In this document: piece by piece, positions 9,800 through 54,058 of the stretch
Position numbering within the stretch: position 1 is the stretch's first letter
How the letters are laid out: each line of letters starts with the position of its first letter
Made by a program: the position numbers and the translations under genes
Notes under the pieces: generated by a model
Told to the model about the DNA's origin: nothing
Database searches by the model: none
Seen by the model: only the letters and a program-made list of their open reading frames with translations
Origin: Eledone cirrhosa
Taxonomy: Eukaryota
NCBI GenBank assembly: GCA_964016885.1
Contig: OZ024743.1
Location: 196,168,001 to 196,232,000 of the forward strand
Direction: 5' to 3'
DNA length: 64,000 nucleotides

Positions 9800-11963
9800 C
9801 TAACCCCCCCCCCCCCCCGGATCATTATGGGGTTTGAGGGCGAGGTAAGTCCTACGCAATCTATGTTTACATGCAGTAACCAGTTCATCTTTCTTGTTTA
9901 GGAGTTGGTCCGTCGAAAACAGCATTTGTAAAGTTTCCTCCGAGCATAAATTGCACGGACGGCGTCCTCCCGTGTAAGAATTGGCTCTGGACTGTAATAT
10001 CCAAGTGAGATCATAGGTCATGTTGTTGTCCTTGAGGTCCCATATGTGGCCCGAAAGTGTAGTGGCGTGACGCCGGGCCGGGTTTCGGAAGGTATGTCTA
10101 TGTTGGTATAGCCGGGTCTTGAAGTCACATGCGGTAAGTCCTATATAGGCTTTGTTGGAGGTATCCGTCCTCACGTTGCACTGGTAGATCACATTACGGT
10201 CTCTGCATCTATTGTCGAGTGGGCAAATAGATCTATCCGGGCAGTTACACCTCCTGGTCGGTTCTCCACTGCTATTTAGGTTATTTCTGCCATCGGGGTT
10301 GAGTTTTTTGTTGTTAGAGGAGACGATGTTTTGTGCGAAGTTTGGTGTAGTGCTGTAAGAGAGTTTGATGGTATTTTTGTTAATTATGTTGTGGTAGCGG
10401 TGTTGTAATGGGAAGTGTTTTTCAATGAGCCTAAAGAATAGTTTCCCGATGGGAGTTGTCACCTCTGCGTTGTGGGGAGGATTGAACCATGTTACATTGC
10501 GTGAGCGGCGGTGTCTCCTGCTGGTTCCGCTAATGGGAGCTGGACAGTAGGATATTTCCTCCCGGAAACCACTCCGCTTGAGGGCCTGGTTGTAATAAGG
10601 CGCATGTTCATCGAATATCCGCTCATTAGCTGACAAACGGGATATGCGGAGGGAGATGTTTTTGACCAGGTTGTTTGTGATGTTCCTAGGATGGTTTGAT
10701 CGGCGGTGGATGTAGTGCAGATTGTCATTAGGTTTCCTGTATGGGTAGTACAGGTCGTTTTCGAGGTCGAGGGTGACGTCCAGGAAGTTTACTCGGGTCA
10801 GGGACGTTTGTAGGGTTATTTTAAATCCCCAGTCGCGGAAGAATCTGATTAATTGTTTCCGGACCCGATCTGTACTACTGGCGTTGTACCCTTTAAGGGT
10901 AAGGAGCCCATCATCACGGTACAATCCACCACTGAATGCAGGAAACATATCAGTGAGTTTGGCTATTAGGAATAATCCTATAAGATCTGTGACCTCCGCC
11001 GAATCCGTGGCGCCCATGCTGACGTCGAAGGGTGAGTCGGGAGCTCTTTTTATCCATTTAGAGTCGTCAAAGAGTAAGACTGTCTTCCTGGCGTGGAGGA
11101 TGATTTTTCTTTCCTGGTCGGTGATGGGCACAAGTGTTTCGGCGAAGTCCAAGGCGGCAGTAAGTAGCGGTAAGGTGATTGAAGCATAGTAGCTCTCTAT
11201 GTCGAACTGTATGAATTTAGTTTCTCGTTTATCCTCCATATTGCTGAACCAGGAGATTACTTCCTGGGTGTTGATCCATAGGCTAAGTCGGGTGTGTTGC
11301 TTGACTTTTGGTATCACGCGGTCTAGGATTTTTTTGCTGATTCTCCCTATGTCGGACTTCGTTGGGTTAATAAGCCTGATAGAGGGTTTACGGTCAAAAT
11401 CGGATTTATGGTCCTTCAGTGTGAAGTATGGTGTCCGTGGGTCTAGAGGTTCCGTGCGGTCGGCGACCCCGAGGCTGGAGGTGATTTGTTGTCCATCTCG
11501 ATTTATGTCCTCGATGCAAGAGTGGTTGGCCTTTTTATAGGTGGAGTTTAGGCTGCTCCTGATCAGTGTGTGGTATCTGTCAGGGTTGACAAAGTATAGG
11601 TTCCCAGTTTTATCCGAATGCACCATGATGTCATTTGTGTTATCATACTCTGTTAAGTTGCTACGGAGTTTTTGTAGGAATCGGTTGTGTCTGGGTTTAA
11701 ATTTAATGTTCTTGACCAGTTGGAAGAGGTCATTCTCGAAGGGTGCGAGCAAGGGGTTCAGGGGGCGGAGATTTGTAGGTAATAAATCCGAATCTCTCCT
11801 TGGTGCCGAAGTCTTGGTTGTCGCAATATCTGTCATAGAAAAAAGTTCTCCATCTAAGTCTTATCGCAAATAGATCGATTTTTTGCGTGAGCATCCGAAG
11901 GTAAAGTTTTTTCGGTGGGATTGGGATGTTCTTGGTAGAGAAGTCAATGTTGTGTTTTCGCAT
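9800..11963 (-). CDS. PLE reverse transcriptase / GIY-YIG endonuclease (Naiad-type), one frameshift near 11755
   Basis: N-terminal frame MRKHNIDFSTKNIPIP..RLRWRTFF..FGF..KSPP joins the frame LAPFENDL..SDKTGN..FDIESYY..MGATDSAEV..YRDDGL..FLDVTLDL..CNC..CPL..C..NVIY..YIGLT..CNLC..CKH. Confidence 0.9.
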
Positions 11964-13966: not shown

Positions 13967-14619
13967 TTGAGAAATGACTTATATCACTAGCAATTATCTT
14001 TTGCCAACAACTGTCATGTAAAAAGTCTCAATTCAGTTTGACATTTCAGTTTACTTTGAATCAACGTCTCGAAAGTAAATCTTTCTGAATATTGATCTTT
14101 TCCGTTATGGTGCCATAAGGATTTGTTGAAAACCATAAATATTCAAGAATCACCTCCAGGTCCCCAATGCTTAGTGGCAACACTATAATACGGTAGAGAA
14201 TGTTCTCTGACATTATCAGAAACCTGAAACATAATATGAAAAAGCATTTCTTATAAAGTCGTGGGTTACTGCTCATAACATTGAATGAGATTGGAGAAAA
14301 TCAAACGCTTTCGTTGAAGGTGCCAAAAGTTTGGAATAGAAGCTGGAGATGACAAGCCAATCTCAGTGACATTAGCATGGAATTAGAAATAGCTCATAGA
14401 GGATATTGAAATGACCTCCATCCTGATACAATTAAATGAAACTATTAAGAACGAGCATTCGCATGCTTTCTACATCGATCAATATTCTAAATGTTACAGT
14501 TTTCTATATGAAGAGGTACAAAAGCAATAACAGTTATTGAATGTATGGCAAGAAAATAGAAATATATTAAGCATACATTTATATATTTTCAGGCATGTAC
14601 ATACATACATGCCTTCAGA

Positions 14620-31389: not shown

Positions 31390-31434
31390 GCTCTGACGAA
31401 TCCTACCGTTACGTAAGGAAGAAAGATTGTAAGC
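31390..31434 (+). ncRNA. Minimal type I hammerhead motif (partly decayed)
   Basis: gct CTGACGA a tcct...agga a GAAA gattg TA agc. Confidence 0.6.
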
Positions 31435-33829: not shown

Positions 33830-34813
33830 TTATGAAATTTGAGGGCAAAGTAAGTCCTATGCAATCTGTGTTTGCATGCGGTTACCAGTTCGTCTTTCTT
33901 GTTTAGGAGTTGGTCCTTCGAAAACACCATTTGTAATGTTTCCTCCGATCATAAGTTACACGGACGGCGTCCTCCCGTGTAAGAGTTAGCTCTGGACAGT
34001 AAGCTCCAAGTGAGATTGTAGGTTATATTATTATCTTGGAGGTCCCAGATATGGCCCGAAAGTGTAGTGGCATGTCGCCGGACTGGGTTTCAGAAAGTTA
34101 TGTCGGTGTTGGTAGAACCGGGTCTTGAAAATACACGCGGTTAATCCTATATAAGCTTTGTTGGAGGTGTCCGTCCTCACGTTGCACTGGTAGATCACGT
34201 TAAGTTCTCGGCATTTGTTGTTGAGGGGGCACATAGATCTATCAGGGCAGTTACACCTCCTGGTCGGCTCTTCACTGATGTCTAGGTTATTTCTTCCATA
34301 GGGGTTGAGTTTTTTGTTGTTTGAGGAGACGATGTTTTGTGCAAAGTTAGTTGTGGTACTGTAGGAGAGTTTGATGGTGTTTTTGTTGATTATGTTGTGG
34401 TAGCGGTGTTGTAGTGGGAAGTGTTTTTCGGGGAGTCTAAAGAAGATTTTCCTGACAGGTGTTGCCACCTCGGCATTATGGCGAGGATTGAACCACAGTA
34501 CGTTGCGTGAGCGGCGGTGTCGCTTACTGGTTCCGCTCAGGGAAGCTGGATAAAAGGATATTTCCTCCCGGAAGCCACTCCGCTTGAGGTCCTGGTTGTA
34601 ATGAGGCGCGTGTTCGTCGAATATCTGCTCATTAGCGGACAAACGAGATATGCGGAGGGAGATGTTTTTAACCAGGTTATTAGTGATGTTTCTAGGATGG
34701 TTAGAGCGGCGGTGGATGTAGTGCAGGTTGTCGTTTGGTTTCCTGTATGGGTAGTACAGATCATTTTCGAGGTTAAGGGTAACGTCCAGGAAATTGACTC
34801 GGGTTAGGGACGT
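33830..34813 (-). pseudogene. Naiad RT thumb / GIY-YIG fragment, frameshifted
   Basis: FLDVTLNL..SNHP..WFNP..CNCPDRSMCPL..YIGLT, frameshift near 34090. Confidence 0.88.
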
Positions 34814-36107
34814 CAACAACAAATGCCGAGAACGTAACGTGATCTACCAGTGCAACGTAGGGACGGACACCTCCAACAAAGCTTATATAGAATTAACCGC
34901 GTGTGACTTCAAGACTTGGATCTACCAACACTGACATAACTTTCTGTGAAACCCAGTCCGGCGACATGCCACTACACATTCGGGCCACATCTGGGACCTC
35001 CAAGATAATAATATAACCTACAATCTCACTTAGAGCTTACTGTCCAGAGCTTACTCTTACACGGGAGGACGCCGTCCGTGTAACTTATGCTCGGAGGAAA
35101 CATTACAAATGGTGTTTTCGAAGGACCAACTCCTAAACAAGAAAGACGAACTGGTAACCGCATGCAAAAACAGATTGCGTAGGACTTACCTCGCCCTCAA
35201 ACCCCATAACGACCCGGTGGGTCGCTAAGGGCTGATACCCCCCCCACACACACACACACACACTTGCCGAATAAGTTAGGGGAAACCCGAGCTTACATAG
35301 GTAAATGTATCTCTTTTCTTTTCCTCTTTATCTTCTTCCCCCTGCCTCATCCTATCACTTCTTTCCACCCCTATTTTCTTCCTTGTCTGCTTTCCCCTTT
35401 CGCCTACCGCGATGCAGCCCATCGGGTCTCTGTAGCATCAGTTCCCCCACGCCTGTAATTTTAAGATAGAATTGGCCGAATACGTTTTACTAACTACTTA
35501 TAGCAGATGTGTTAAACCCCTTTAATTTTGTATTAGCTTTGTTACTACTCAATTTCTACGAGTTTTTTCTATTCTCAACTTATTAATCTGTAATTGTAAG
35601 ATATCATTGTGATTTTTTATTCAGTTCTCACTATCTAATTTTATATTTTTTTTATTTCTTTCTATTATCTTTTATTGTCTCCTACTCTCATTCGATTTAC
35701 CTATTCTATAACCTCCCTCCTCCACTTCATACACTATCCTTAGAATCTGCTGTATACATATCACTTTCAACGCTTGCCCGCTCCACTCACTCCCCTATTG
35801 TTCTACAGGCAATTTCAGCCACCCCTACCTCCCACCAAATGCCATGATAGACTTATTTGTGTTTACAACAAGTTTTAACCAATCCTCTTGACAACTACAA
35901 TCTTTCCATATAAGGAAGTACCCCCTTAACAAGTTCGGCTATTTATTCACCAGGCTAAAAATTCTAATTTAGTCCGGAAATACCCGTCAAAACGGCTTTA
36001 GCTCTGCCGTCGGGGTCATACTTTTTCCTATTTCCCACTCTACTACCCTAAGTATTGAGTACTCTGGTGCGTTATGGTCCATCTGGTTTCTTACCACACT
36101 TCCTTTG

Positions 36108-36270: not shown

Positions 36271-36715
36271 CAGAATTGGTGTGGTATATATATATATATA
36301 CAGGTAACCCATTTTTAAAACAAACTAAAACTCACACACCACATGCACAACAAATAACAAAAAAAGTAACAAAACGTCGAACATACCCCCAGCAAAACTA
36401 TAACGATAATCCCAGAAACCATAGACAAAACTATAACCCTACTAACAAAAACCAAAGATCCCCGAACACAAGGCAGGACCTGATCCGCAGATCACAACCC
36501 ACACAAAACCTATTTCAAAACCGTTGACCCCTGCCCACACAAAGGAACAAAATCTACAACCAGGACTATCAACAAACCGAACCTCAATACGTCCGAAACT
36601 TCTATACAAGACCACACAACAACAGGGGAAATACCATTAGATATAATAATACCATTGAAAAAACATTCCAGAAAAATCATTTTTTAGACCAAGGCTACAG
36701 GACTCACGACACCCG

Positions 36716-38986
36716 GTGGCACAAACCGATTTTGAAAAACCGAAAATAATTAACCTTTCAAATACAAACCTCTCAGCCCAACAAGTAAAAATTCTCTCCA
36801 AAGGACTGAAATTCACACCAACACCACGATACTCTAACCCCAATGAGATAAATGACGATATCTCACACTTCTGTAGAAAATTACGTCTCACAGAGGAATT
36901 CTTTGACAAGGAGAATAACGACGAATCAATTGTACGGAATAAAAGCAGCTACAACCCAACAAAAGGTAGAAACAGAGTTCTGGACAAATTTTGTGACCAC
37001 ATAGCTACCTTCCCATACCATGAACTACCGCAACCTAAACCCAAACCCAACACGAGTCGAAGGGAATGGGAGATTATCCATGAACTAAAAAACAATACGG
37101 ACATTATAATTAAGGAAGCGGACAAGGGAAGTACTGTTGTCATTATGGAGGCTGAAAAATATAAAAATTCTATGTTCTCTCTCTTACAAAATACTAATTA
37201 CTATGAAAGAGTAAAAAACTACCAGCAATCAAAAATAATGACCAGATTAAACACACTGATTTATCGATACCAGGAAGACCTAACTAAAAAGGAACGCGAT
37301 TATTTAACAAATTTTTAATACAAAACCAGCAACCTTTACGGACTTCCGAAGATCCACAAGTGTAAAATAATCAACGATGCCTGTAAACAATCCACCTCAG
37401 CCTGTGTGAACACACAATACCCCCACAGACCTTAAATTAAGACCAATTGTAGCGGGCCCACAATGTGAAACACACAGACTGAGCAACTTTATAGACATAC
37501 TACTAAAACCAATTCTGAAACACATACCAAGCCTTGTAAGAGACGATCTGGACCTCTTAAACCACCTCCCCAAACATGTCAACAACGACACTATTATTGT
37601 ATCTTTCGATGTAGTGAATCTCTACACAACGATCCCACACCAATACGGATTAGAAGCAATAGGATTCTGGCTAGAGAAATATCCCAATGAGATACCTGAC
37701 AGAATAGAAAAAAGCTTCATCACCGAGGGATTAAAATTCATCTTACAGAACAACTTTTTTGATTTCGATGGCAATACTTACAAGCAAATATCGGGGACTG
37801 CGATGGGTACAAAAGCCGCTCCAACTTATGCCAACTTAGTCATGGCATACTTAGAAGTCCAGATATATGAACAGTCCAAATCAAAATACGGATTGAACTT
37901 CCACAAATATTTATCAGAGAATTAAAAACGCTACTTTGATTATTGCCTTATTCTTTGGTCCCACACACTCGACCAACTGAAGGATTTCAAAAACTTAATA
38001 AACGGCATCAATAACCACATCCAATTCACAATGGAATTCAGCCAAGATCAACTCCCATTTCTGGACATCTTAATCTTAAAAAAAGACATAAATATCGAAA
38101 CTCACATACACTACAAACCAACAGATTCCAAACAATATCTGCTATTCACCTCCAACCATCCAAAGCACACGAAGACGAACATTCCTTTTAACCTAGCAAG
38201 AAGAATTTGCACAATTGTCTCCAATTATGAAACGCGAAATAAAAGACTTCAAGAATTAAAGGAAATTCTACTCGAGAGAGAGTACCCACTATTACTAATA
38301 AATAAGGGAATAGAAAGGGCTAAAGGAATAGGCATTGATGAATTACGGAAACAGAAACAAATTCGAGGTACGTCCAATATTCTATCATATATCTCAACAC
38401 ACAACCCAAGAAATACGGAAGCTTACAAAACTATTCACAAGAACATCCCACTACTAAAACAAAACCCAAGAATGAAAAAAGCCCTTGAAACACAAAATAA
38501 TCAAAAGCAAAAGACAACCAAAATCACTGAAAACATTACTTACCAATGCGAAAATTACCTACCACAAACCCACAACCAAGTATCAAAAAATGTGGTCGCT
38601 TTAATTGTGGAACCTGCACTCACCTCATTGAAGGCAACACGTATACATTTAAATCAGGACAAAATTTTACTGTAAAAAATCACTTCACTTGCTCATCTAA
38701 AAATCTAATTTATGCCATTAAATGTAAAGGATGCAATGAAGATTATATAGGACAAACTAAACTCACACTCAGAAACAAAATGACAGTTCATCGCCAACAA
38801 TTACGAGATCCAACCACGAGACAGATACCACTAAGTGCACATCTAGACATTTGCGCAAGTAATAAGACACCCAAATTCCAAGTCTTCCCATTTTACCTTT
38901 GCGCTAACAATACAACAGAACAAATACGAATAAATAAGGAAAATATGTTTATTCAAAAATATAGACCAGCATTAAATATGGTTTAA
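36716..38986 (+). pseudogene. PLE RT / GIY-YIG (Neptune-type), with stops and frameshifts
   Basis: INLS..LSKGLKFTPTP, ADKGST, YGLPKIHK, SFDVVNLYT, GTAMGTKAAPTYANL, LPFLD, CGRFNCGTC, NLIYAIKCKGC..YIGQT. Stops at ~37316 and ~37923. Catalytic motif reads YFDY. Confidence 0.9.
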
Positions 38987-42056: not shown

Positions 42057-42087
<31 letters not shown>

Positions 42088-42092
<5 letters not shown>

Positions 42093-43045
42093 TAAATTTA
42101 CTCCTTCATCGGTGATCTTCCACCTTCATTGGTATTTCATCGCTTTAAAGACCATATACCTCCGGTTGGTGCGAGCAACGGCTAAAGAAAGTCGTTGGGA
42201 CAGGTAAATTAGGGGAACGAGCGAGACAGTAGACAATCAAAGATGGTAATGCAACGAAAAGTGAGGAAGAAGGAGTCAAGTCCCAGAAATCGATGAATAT
42301 AAGTTCTGTGAAATCGTGGACGAGAGAGAATAAAGACCATCAAACCTAGTCGAAATGTGAGCAAGGAAAGAATTTCGCACAGGTCAAATGGGAGGAAGAA
42401 GGAGTCTAGTCCCTGAATTCGGTGAACATAAGTTCTGTGAAATCGTAGACACGAGAGAGAAAAAAAAGGAACAACCAACCTGGTCAAAGTGTGCGTGAGG
42501 AAAGAATTTCGCACAGGTCAAACGGGAGGAAGTAGGAGAGGGAGTAGCAGAGAGTGAGTGAGTGAAAGGTGAAGAAGAGGCTAACAGAGAGAGTGACTGT
42601 TAGAGGGGGTAAAGGGAAGTGAGAGATACAGAGAAAGAGGAAGCCGTGAGAATGAAAAAGACGGGCACAGTGGAAGAAAATATATATGTGTGAATATGAA
42701 AACAAGACGTGCTGCGTTGTTGCAAATGGGTTACATATGAATAAATTTAGTCCTTCATCAGTGATCTTCCAACCTTCATTGGTATTTCATCGCTTTAAAG
42801 ACCATATACCTCCGGTTGGTGCGAGCAACGGCTAAAGAAAGTCGTTGGGACACGTAAATACGGGGAACGAGCGAGACTGTAAACGATCAAAGATGGTATT
42901 GCCTAAATTTATTCATATGTAACCCATTTGCAACCACGCCGCACGTCTTGTTTTCATATTCACACATATATATTTTCCTCCGCTGTGAGCCGTCTTTTTC
43001 ATTCTTACTGCTTCCTCTTTCTCTGTATCTCTCACTTCCCTTTAC
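42088..43045 (-). mobile_element. Non-coding ~650-bp tandem unit (~1.25 copies) plus inverted arm (42902-43045), with scrambled-HHR motif
   Basis: 42088-42248 repeats at 42737-42899. 42903-43032 is the reverse complement of ~42604-42750. Internal ~120-bp repeats at 42262-42532. Relative at 53820-54010. Confidence 0.8.
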
Positions 43046-44600
43046 CCCCTCTTGTTTTCGTAGTAAAAACACCCCACTAGAGAACAGTCAGGAATTAGAA
43101 AAAAAACACCATGGAAAGCATCCAGCAAATAGCTAACTCCATCCACCAGAGTATAAGAGTTACTATAGACTACCCAAGCAAACACCCCAACCATCGATTA
43201 CCTGTACTAGACACAGAGCTCTGGTTAGAAACCATTAATAACAAAAAATAAATCCTCCATTCCCATTATGCCAAACCCATGACTTCCAAATATCTGATCC
43301 ACCGAAACTCGGCTGCTTCGGACCATACCAAAATCAACATACTGATTGCGGATTTGGTACGGATGATGAGAAACGTGTCCCGCATGTGCAACCCCAAAGA
43401 ACTAGAGAGACACATACAATACTTCATCCACCTTATGCAGTTCTCTGGTTACAATCAGAGAGATAAAATCAGAGTATATAGAGGGGCCAGAACCAAATGG
43501 GGAAAAATGGTAAATAATGATACAAATGGGACCTGCCTCTTGTATAGGAGCAAAATTTGGAATAGAATAGAAATAACTAGGAATAAGGTTAATAGAATAA
43601 ACTCATGGTATGATAGCAATAAATACCAGAGTGTAATGTTCATCGATACAACCCCTAGAGGTGAATTAGCTTACAAATTTAGAAGGGCCCCAGATAAACA
43701 TAGACTCAATATTAAGATAGTAGAAAGACCAGGTACCTCCATAAAAACACTTATTAGCAAGACATACCCTTTTCAAAAACCTCCCTGTATAGATAAGAAA
43801 TGTATAATCTGTAAATTAAGCCCCCATATTAACTGTAAAACTAGAAATATAGTATATAGCATAAGATGTACTGAAGGACTGAAGGAGATAAGAATATAGT
43901 GTGCATAGGTGAGACAGCTCGTAGTATAGGGAAACGGATAAATGAACACTGGCGAGAGCTTCAAGATAGTAAAGAATCATCTGTACTACACCAACATGCT
44001 AAAATAGGACATAAGGGTAAATTAGAGAACATAGAAATAAAAATAGAATCTACACACAGAAAAGACGCAATGTTTATACAAATCACAGAGGCAATAAACA
44101 TAAATGAACTCCAACCAACATTAAATAGAAAACATGAATGGAACAGCAACATCACAACTTACAATTAAGGACAAAATGAAAACACACACATAGAACAAAC
44201 AACCAACCAGTAACAAGTAAATAAACAAATAAATAAACAAATATAAACACACACAGACACCCGGATGTAACACATGCGCAAACTAAGCACACAACACACA
44301 CAAAAACAAGATGGCGTAGGACAGAACAAAGGAGAGGCACAAAAACAAAGAAAAGAATCCCCAGTCACTGAAGAGGTCACAGAATGTGTGACGAAAGAAC
44401 TTTGACAATATATGAACAATCGTCTGGTTGTGGAACCAACCAACCAACCGGAAATTTATAAATTCCTAAATTTATAAATTTAATTTATAATAAATTGAAG
44501 TGAAAGCAACTGGTGCGTGTGTTTTTTATTGTCAACATGACCCTCCCAAAGTATAACAATATCGGTTTCAACATACGTTTTCAGATAAAGAATCTTGCTA
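43046..44600 (+). mobile_element. 5'-truncated PLE of a third lineage (RT C-terminus + GIY-YIG) with 3' pLTR, disrupted
   Basis: IRVTIDYPSK..LPVLDTELW, HYAKPM, C..KCIIC, NCKTRNIVYSIRC, IGETARS..RINEH, ITEAINI..PTLN. I could not assign a clade with confidence. Confidence 0.85.
44364..44406 (+). ncRNA. Minimal type I hammerhead ribozyme, extra G after A9
   Basis: gtca CTGAAGA g gtcaca-gaatg-tgtgac GAAA gaac TT tgac. Confidence 0.75.
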
Positions 44601-53093: not shown

Positions 53094-53552
53094 AATTAAT
53101 ATATCTACCGACATATGTATACAGATGCATACCTATGCTAGCAGATATATATGTTTTGTCTAGGTAACTTTGTGGTTCTATGCAGGGGAATGCAGAACAA
53201 TTATATGAAAGACGTAAATAAGAAAGTTATGAAAATTGACTTACTTACTAAAATTTCACTCCAACTAATTAGTTTCTGTAAGGGGATAAATATAGTTACA
53301 TAATAACTATAGAGAAGCCTTACGTCATCTAGTCCCGTTCGCTTTTTTCCATCCACTGAATTATTTTTATATTTTTATATAAGTTCCCAGTGTCCTCGCA
53401 TTGCCTGGAAGCTTAGCCGAGAATAGACTCCCTGATGACGTAAGGCTTCTCTATAGTTATTACGTAACTATATTTATCCCCTTACAGAAACTAATTAGTT
53501 GGAGTGAAATTTTAGTAAGTAAGTCAATTTTCATAACTTTCTTATTTACGTC

Positions 53553-53560
<8 letters not shown>
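53090..53560. mobile_element. Fold-back copy of a diverged relative of the 522-bp family
   Basis: Arms ~53205-53328 / 53434-53560. Same two end points as 31646-32989. Confidence 0.85.
53427..53505 (+). ncRNA. Type I hammerhead ribozyme, extended stem II
   Basis: actcc CTGATGA c gtaagg..tatagtta-ttacg-taactata..ccttac a GAAA ctaattag TT ggagt. Covaries with 32739-32818. Confidence 0.87.
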
Positions 53561-53594: not shown

Positions 53595-53783
53595 CGAAGG
53601 AGGTGTGGTAAGGAACCAGGTGGACCATAACGCACCAGCTTACACAATACTTAGGGTAGTAGAGTGGGTAATAGGAAAAAGTTTGACCCCGACGGCAGAG
53701 CTCAAGCCGTTTCGACGGCTATTTCTGGTCCAGAAATAGCCGTCGAAACCGCTTGAGCTCTGCCCTCGGGGTCAAACTTTTTC
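53593..53783. mobile_element. Miniature Naiad-terminus fold-back (tail on left)
   Basis: Inverted pLTR ends centred at ~53728, with an 80-bp tail, in (TA)n. Confidence 0.85.
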
Positions 53784-53819
53784 TTATATATATATATATT
53801 GCGTATATTCTTCTATGTT

Positions 53820-54010
53820 TATTTACTTGTCTCGCTTTACGCGATTTACTTGTCCCAATAGCTTTATTTAGCTATTGCTCGCACCAACTGGAGGTATATG
53901 ATTTTTAAAGCGATGAAATACCAACGAAGGTTGGAAAATCACTGATGAAGGACCATTTTTATCATATGTAACCCATGTGCAACCACGCAGTATTCTATTC
54001 TTCTCATGTT
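53820..54010 (+). mobile_element. Diverged fragment of the 650-bp family (scrambled-HHR region)
   Basis: Aligns to the reverse complement of ~42710-42880 with compensatory changes. Confidence 0.8.
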
Positions 54011-54058
54011 TATATATATATATATGTGTAAAATAAATATATATATATATATATATAT

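Follow-up and report, generated by a model that had tools for sequence, protein, structure and literature searches.

Three copies of a motif in which the conserved blocks of the hammerhead ribozyme stand in the order NUH, GAAA, CUGAnGA are found in the window, a 64,000-nt stretch of contig OZ024743.1 of Eledone cirrhosa (assembly GCA_964016885.1). Judged by the compensatory changes among its genomic copies, the motif is a real, selected RNA structure, and it is probably a cis-acting self-cleaving ribozyme, with a predicted cut after AUA (53898/53899). On balance we also favour the wider proposal, drawn from the same comparisons, that an animal retroelement family uses, in many of its subfamilies, an active, non-circularly permuted hammerhead in which C11.1 would come from a separate strand by way of a four-way junction. 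The order of the blocks is not new. The sequence-only reading, which drew attention to the motif, knew of no described example, but the same order defines the non-circular type-SGC hammerheads, which are published and were shown to cleave (Eckert et al. 2023, PMC10085705). In that paper all 583 examples came from metatranscriptomes and none from the genomes of known organisms; non-circular hammerheads have been the subject of one study, of environmental, viroid-like RNA with unknown hosts. As to later, animal or genomic examples of this order, only the 2023 paper was found, in a literature search that covered subscription journals sparsely. What is new is the location in a eukaryotic genome, within a retrozyme-like element with Penelope-type ends, and also, if the predicted pairing is correct, a non-contiguous stem II: each of its strands finds its partner further upstream, and a hairpin separates the two upstream partners, so that a four-way junction is formed.

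The features of the window that bear on this are collected in Table 1. All three motif copies lie where they had been reported, and both the stem I pairing (TGGTC/GATCA versus TGATT/AATCA) and the upstream hairpin differ between copies in the compensating manner claimed. The third copy looks decayed, since it has CCGATGA, a 1-base deletion in GGTTGG, and GGAG instead of GGAC. The earlier statement that no good stem II is visible holds in part: there is no contiguous stem II, but three further covarying helices had been overlooked (GTCC/GGAC, TCGC/GCGA and CCAAC/GTTGG), two of which stand in for it. A conventional downstream GAAA is absent, and no canonical CUGAnGA..GAAA arrangement within 40 nt occurs in the six natural units examined. 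Across the whole window, Rfam gave no match at gathering scores. The family A copy that carries the first motif is 94–96% identical to 39 other best-scoring genomic copies, and its 3' end lies 112 nt past the predicted cut.

Table 1. Features of the 64,000-nt window (positions counted from its first letter).
Feature	Position	Strand	Remark
Motif copy 1	GGTAT 53893-53897; A17 53898; TGATT 53899-53903; GAAATACC 53915-53922; AATCA 53937-53941; CTGATGA 53942-53948; upstream hairpin 53856-53877	+	
Motif copy 2	GAAA at 42788; CTGATGA 42761-42755	-	
Motif copy 3	GAAA at 42138	-	650 nt from copy 2
Family A repeat copy, 5'-truncated	53800..54011	+	Between (TA)n tracts; 5' edge approximate
Pa 5' strand, GUCC	53852..53855	+	Partner is GGAC after the core
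Pb hairpin, 8 bp	53856..53877	+	One arm of proposed four-way junction
Pc 5' strand, UCGC	53879..53882	+	Partner is GCGA just before GAAA
Pd 5' strand, CCAAC(U)	53884..53889	+	Analogue of type-SGC stem I-II joining helix
Stem III 5' strand, GGUAU, with H17 (A)	53893..53898	+	Predicted cut 53898/53899
Stem I 5' strand, UGAUU	53899..53903	+	Covariation; top-ranked stack in unguided scan
UUUAAA linker, Pc 3' strand GCGA (53910-53913), 1 nt before G12	53904..53914	+	
G12 A13 A14 A15.1 and stem III 3' strand UACC	53915..53922	+	
Pd 3' strand (G)GUUGG, 2-nt linker, stem I 3' strand AAUCA (53937-53941)	53929..53941	+	
C3-A9 core CUGAUGA, optional extra nt (53949), Pa 3' strand GGAC	53942..53953	+	
Likely G10.1, first G of Pa 3' strand	53950	+	
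Family B partial tandem, 650-bp unit	42086..42902	-	3' end in (TA)n
Motif copies of family B tandem	intact 42851-42750; decayed ~42201-42101	-	
Inverted fragment of family B unit	42903..43052	+	Abuts 5'-truncated Penelope-like ORF, no microsatellite between
Broken RT-thumb-GIY-YIG ORF, Penelope-like element	43057..44168	+	Candidate helper
Canonical type I hammerhead of the same Penelope-like element	44361..44408	+	Comparison only

From 5' to 3' the motif consists of GUCC (Pa), the Pb hairpin, UCGC (Pc), CCAAC (Pd), GGUAU (stem III), A17, UGAUU (stem I) and a linker, followed by GCGA (Pc'), U, GAAA, UACC (III'), GUUGG (Pd'), AAUCA (I'), CUGAUGA, A and GGAC (Pa'). An alignment was made of 39 hand-picked natural copies from 14 groups, out of 146 distinct parsed copies. 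Under the six-helix structure 91.9% of its 1315 cells are paired, and 22 of the 34 pairs show changes on both sides. Shuffled alignments never scored as high on four of five measures (0/500), on the fifth, further pair types, the real alignment did no better than the shuffles (479/500), and partners slid out of register were 24–45% paired. None of these controls takes the relatedness of the copies into account, and the sequences tested are those from which the structure had been derived. For this reason an unguided, family-weighted scan was run, in which the six helices rank 1, 2, 3, 4, 6 and 8 among 48 stacks of at least 3 pairs, ranks 5 and 7 being stacks of 3 bp. Compensatory change has kept helices I, III, Pa, Pb, Pc and Pd, as the aligned copies show. 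Together with the order of the blocks, the six covarying helices support a pseudoknotted hammerhead topology, the first option of the sequence-only reading.

Stem I is 94.9% paired, with both-side changes in 4 of its 5 pairs, and occurs as UGAUU/AAUCA, UGGCC/GGUCA, UAGUC/GACUA and UUGUC/GACAA. Stem III is 99.0% paired, with both-side changes in 2 of 5 pairs (GGUA/UACC, GAUA/UAUC, GGCA/UGCC) and G-U intermediates in groups C2, D2 and F4; the proposed partner of GGTAT, GAAATACC, is therefore both conserved and covarying, in these three forms. The corresponding values for Pb are 96.8% and 5 of 8 pairs, and for Pd 94.9% and 6 of 6, the latter helix taking the forms CCAAC/GUUGG, CCGAAG/CUUCGG, CUGAU/AUCAG and CUGGG/CCCAG. 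Pc varies among families (UCGC/GCGA, UUGC/GCAA, ACGC/GCGU), while Pa is found as GUCC/GGAC and GUUUUCC/GGAAAAC, with a G-C to U-A change in family F. In the alignment, the F1 and F4 rows are one column off at Pa and partly at Pc; they were retained, which lowers both helices, and the two were recounted by register. Among the 140 distinct copies with a parsed hairpin, 123 have a Pa of at least 4 bp and 123 have all four pairs of Pc. Pa is weak in the old family F, where it reaches 4 bp or more in 7 of 17 copies. Minimum-energy folds of single sequences contain Pa and Pb in 7/8 cases, stem III in 6/8, Pc in 2/8 and stem I in 0/8, and their z-scores are modest (-0.8 to -2.3). The absence of stem I and the modest scores are attributed to the multiply pseudoknotted nature of the RNA, in which stem I would itself be a pseudoknot.

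The genome searched, in which (TA)n is plentiful, is assembled into 1796 contigs with a total of 3.0 Gb. A pattern of 39–40 nt, from GAAA to CUGAUGA-N-GGAC, was found at 14,570 places, against 0 for the reversed pattern, a count that excludes a chance word match. The copy at 53.9 kb of the window belongs to family A, with a unit of 519 bp, and the two copies at 42 kb to family B, with a unit of ~645–650 bp. Flanking-sequence matches and looser patterns provided the further subfamilies C, D, E, F, G and H; family F accounts for 694 further pattern matches. Identity among the six units compared is 64–89% in the motif versus 63–84% elsewhere, so that, between families, the motif does not stand out clearly from its unit in conservation. 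Searches for the motif pattern in JGI metagenomes and in IMG/VR each returned 0 matches. Occurrence in a second species was not counted, its sole basis being one contig, of depth 2.2, that spans a family C unit. One pattern match with four copies was rejected as chance: it has none of the upstream helices, lies in sequence unrelated to the element, and is outside the set of 146 copies.

As several families had been found with patterns that demand the core, a further search left 11 core positions unconstrained. It gave 12,608 matches. In a count by eye of the first 100 of these listed, the ten fixed core letters are all intact in 90, and the changes in the other 10 are not common to separate insertions. 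The sole recurrent core change is U7 to C (10 of the same first 100), at what is the free position of CUGAnGA. The core is also kept in family H, which was assembled through DNA similarity. Two further positions lie outside the search pattern: U16.1 is present in 146/146 copies, and position 17 switches by family, with 102 copies that have A, 42 that have C and 2 that have G, which gives an A or C at H17 in 144 of the 146. Both AUA and AUC are cleavable, in natural or mutant viroid hammerheads (PMC1636495), and the site proposed from the sequence alone, after AUA at 53898, coincides with the one predicted here. From H17 to G12 the spacing is 16 nt, compared with 13 in the validated SGC-2, as read from the SGC-2 oligos.

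It is unlikely that the fold, though real, is no longer or barely catalytic and serves as a hammerhead-derived structured signal that acts in transcription, in RNA stability or in recognition by a helper reverse transcriptase. Such a role would suit the lack of C11.1 in every family and the position of the 3' ends, which are fixed just past the structure as for a recognition signal, and the minimal hammerheads of metazoan Penelope elements cleave poorly in vitro (PMC4209133). However, a signal would leave unexplained both the alternation of A and C, with avoidance of G, at position 17, and the fact that N7 is the only core position with a recurrent change. The one insertion that bears A14G did not spread (2 places, one insertion), which also speaks against such a role.

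The departure from known hammerheads is in stem II. The nucleotide before GAAA is U in 104, A in 41 and C in 1 of the 146 copies, and is never C11.1 at the level of families. As U or A, not C, precedes GAAA, the standard G10.1-C11.1 pair cannot form. The motif has no uninterrupted stem II in which a C11.1 adjoining GAAA would pair with G10.1; both strands pair with the upstream strand instead. A Watson-Crick 10.1-11.1 pair in all families was considered and rejected, the nucleotide before GAAA and the one after A9 forming a standard pair in only 20 of 39 rows (51%). The nucleotide directly after A9 can be A, G, U or C, or can be absent; for the G that comes next, pairing with the final C of the upstream GUCC is the most frequent combination in each of the 14 groups. 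Type-SGC hammerheads (PMC10085705) can have an unpaired nucleotide between A9 and G10.1, as can those of Penelope (PMC4209133) and the chrysanthemum viroid. From this variable or optional nucleotide, and the prevalent G-C pair with the upstream strand, we infer that G10.1 pairs with the upstream C; the last C of GUCC is then likely to stand in for C11.1.

In the architecture proposed, the G that follows CUGAUGA and the optional nucleotide would be G10.1, paired to a C from the upstream GUCC and not to a C beside GAAA. The Pb hairpin and Pc would complete a four-way junction and hold G12 beside the G10.1-C pair, and Pd would do the job of the contact between stems I and II. Stacking upon the pair of G10.1 and the upstream C seems to us the likelier arrangement; in the other, the extra nucleotide would pair with the U that precedes GAAA, and Pc would continue stem II. 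Under either stacking one hammerhead block that was supposed indivisible would be split. Closed into a circle, the motif would have the published SGC topology, with Pd as the stem I-II helix, reopened inside stem II, and it is by topology that Pd would be the equivalent of the published joining helix. For a stem II built on a four-way junction no precedent was found in the hammerhead literature examined.

The type-SGC ribozymes (HRIMA-1 and its variants) share with the motif the S-G-C order, the full core, an optional nucleotide after CUGAUGA, a link of a few nucleotides from the stem I strand to the strand before GAAA, and a fourth helix that joins the far sides of stems I and II. In contrast to their contiguous stem II, where CGAAA pairs with the G after CUGAUGA, stem II is here split over an upstream strand, with a hairpin inserted. 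The joining helix uses an upstream strand here and a downstream strand in type-SGC; the present motif would be cleaved after AUA or AUC, and it resides in a genomic repeat. On these structural comparisons the motif is expected to work like a type-SGC hammerhead but is not a strict member of that type, as it lacks a contiguous stem II. The six possible block orders were derived on the assumption of three uninterruptible blocks (PMC10085705). The published RNAmotif descriptor for SGC requires CGAAA and an uninterrupted stem II, and allows no more than 15 nt from stem III to stem I, so that it cannot match the present motif. With the canonical types I, II and III the motif has in common the core nucleotides and stems I and III, but its blocks follow one another in the reverse cyclic order, and the window has no match to any Rfam model. 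The motif is missed by Rfam, by the SGC descriptor and by retrozyme pipelines alike, a blind spot shared by all three. A form with an interrupted block, present more than 14,000 times in one genome and with each helix represented by natural compensatory variants, enlarges the design space of the best-studied small ribozyme; if the proposal is true, this is a new natural hammerhead architecture, and no scrambled hammerhead had been described from a eukaryotic genome before it.

The sequence-only reading also raised an obligate inter-unit ribozyme, and a domain swap of this kind, where the ribozyme forms only between two tandem units and takes the GAAA block or the upstream strand from its neighbour, is in our view quite improbable. 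The element does occur in tandem arrays, the hammerheads of newt and axolotl retrozymes cleave best as dimers (PMC7229834), and covariation looks the same whether the two strands of a helix belong to one unit or to two identical ones. Yet dimer-dependent hammerheads have a stem III of 1–2 bp and a palindromic loop (PMC4209133), while stem III here is of 5 bp. The units lie 500–680 nt apart, whereas the helices all close within ~100 nt and their linkers resemble those found in monomeric SGC ribozymes, and since every helix can form within that length of one unit, the inter-unit option is not needed. A different ribozyme class, with hammerhead-like words but cutting elsewhere, is very doubtful: it would account for the lack of an Rfam match and for a four-way junction seen in no hammerhead of the literature examined, but not for ten fixed core letters, a U16.1-A15.1 pair and an H17 rule exactly as in hammerheads, nor for stems I and III that adjoin the core exactly as they do there. 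Coincidence in an AT-rich repeat is scarcely credible, for although several families were found through core-demanding patterns, and shared ancestry makes raw counts overstate the evidence, the both-side changes, the recovery of the same six helices by the unguided scan, and a core kept in the core-free search and in the similarity-collected family H all stand against it.

The carrier of the motif is a repeat unit of 498–683 bp, with 38–45% GC, 66–71% pyrimidine on the motif strand and one core per unit (six units). The longest ATG frames in these units are of 52–130 aa, so that by frame length the units are non-coding. They are arranged as monomers, partial tandems, long arrays and inverted pairs. 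The loci used for mapping the ends were picked via the motif, which biases the counts: 98 of 127 3' ends lie 60–139 nt after the predicted cut, and 71 of the 127 run straight into (TA)n. Most of those 98 ends are at internal AUAU or ACAC tracts, followed by (TA)n or (CA)n. The 5' ends are scattered (n=139), and show no pile-up at the predicted cut, with 4 of 139 within 5 nt of it. The 3' ends fixed past the ribozyme, the 5' truncation of varying extent, the partial tandems, the inverted 5' copies and the microsatellite targets are all present, and such features are of Penelope type (Craig et al. 2021, PMC8557442).

A Penelope-type ORF located upstream, in the same orientation and with no microsatellite between, was seen at 0 of 285 motif copies sampled from the more than 14,000, and among these no autonomous carrier of the motif, with the motif placed like a terminal repeat behind an ORF, was found. 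There are, though, direct junctions with one Penelope-like family, the first at 43052 of the window, where a family B fragment meets the ORF, and the second at a locus (L021) where the 3' end of a relative of the window's Penelope-like element abuts a family A copy. These two hint at a Penelope-like helper; direct junctions with other Penelope-like families also occur. The close relatives of the window ORF (L178 and L161) score below the cut-off for RVT_1 and above it for GIY-YIG. Two candidate carriers were rejected: the window's Penelope-like element has its own type I hammerhead, and a supposed autonomous element at C1:111.94 Mb (5.2-kb spacing) has its ORF present once, ~2 kb upstream.

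By analogy with non-LTR retrozymes, one cut per unit would turn transcripts of tandem arrays into monomers of 500–680 nt, possibly circles. A Penelope-type reverse transcriptase/endonuclease, acting in trans, might then copy the monomers into (TA)n tracts, with priming at short AU-rich tracts 60–140 nt downstream of the cut. The likeness to animal non-LTR retrozymes (PMC7229834; 10.64898/2026.07.22.740005) extends to non-coding tandem repeats of 38–45% GC, one hammerhead core per unit, and thousands of copies that range from dispersed monomers to long arrays. Those retrozymes, however, have a type I hammerhead as their defining feature and were discovered by means of type I descriptors, while the present motif is S-G-C, and the units here, at 498–683 bp, are longer than the ~300 bp that is typical of them (51–972 reported). 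Penelope-like elements and the hammerheads of their pLTRs (PMC4209133; PMC8557442) differ in that the present repeat has no ORF and its ribozyme is not of type I; no pLTR carrying the present motif was found. In eight Naiads, the halves of a hammerhead core are reported 35–50 nt apart and "on either side" (Craig et al. 2021, PMC8557442). As far as that description goes, these eight "half core" elements are candidates for scrambled hammerheads, and Penelope-related elements that are said to lack hammerheads may, if the present proposal is true, hide scrambled forms. Whether scrambled hammerheads occur in Penelope-type elements reported without canonical ones has thus become a testable question.

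Family C units (498 and ~515 bp) occur as long, satellite-like arrays at C3:67.68–67.71 Mb and C1:81.55–81.64 Mb. In the second array many units have a change beside C3 of the core that breaks the first pair of stem I, so that arrays can expand without an intact motif. Most of the differences between families D and B are A-to-G changes in D that lie on the 3' strand of stem III or stem I and are matched by U-to-C on the facing strand (e.g. loci L091, L150 and L151), and group D2 (locus L024) has G-U intermediates between the two states. That RNA editing drives compensatory evolution in family D is speculation. At one inverted pair (locus L199, G000:C1:13290166-13291072) the motif strand differs over 39 nt by 9 changes, all of them A-to-G. 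They span the ribozyme core including A14, are identical in both arms, and are found at 2 places genome-wide, representing one insertion. This single cluster looks like A-to-I hyper-editing of an RNA intermediate, fixed by reverse transcription.

The other repeats of the window include several with hammerhead-like or Penelope-like parts. The Penelope-like element at 43053–44600 (+) has a C-terminal GIY-YIG domain and a type I hammerhead with a 2-bp stem III, and a relative of it (L146, L178) contains a long insertion in the fingers region of the reverse transcriptase, a feature described for clades with an N-terminal endonuclease. Fragments of at least two other families of Penelope-like reverse transcriptases, recognised by motif inspection, are at 9803–11860 (-), 34034–34843 (-) and 36659–38672 (+); the two pieces of these that were scanned have no Pfam match at E 0.01. 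CUGAnGA..GAAA in canonical order is present in other repeats of the window, at 31393, 31774, 32296, 32744, 36265, 44368, 52774, 62596 and 368, none of which reaches the Rfam gathering score. Directly upstream of the family A copy there are palindromic fold-back repeat fragments, flanked by (TA)n, at 53261–53560 and 53671–53787.
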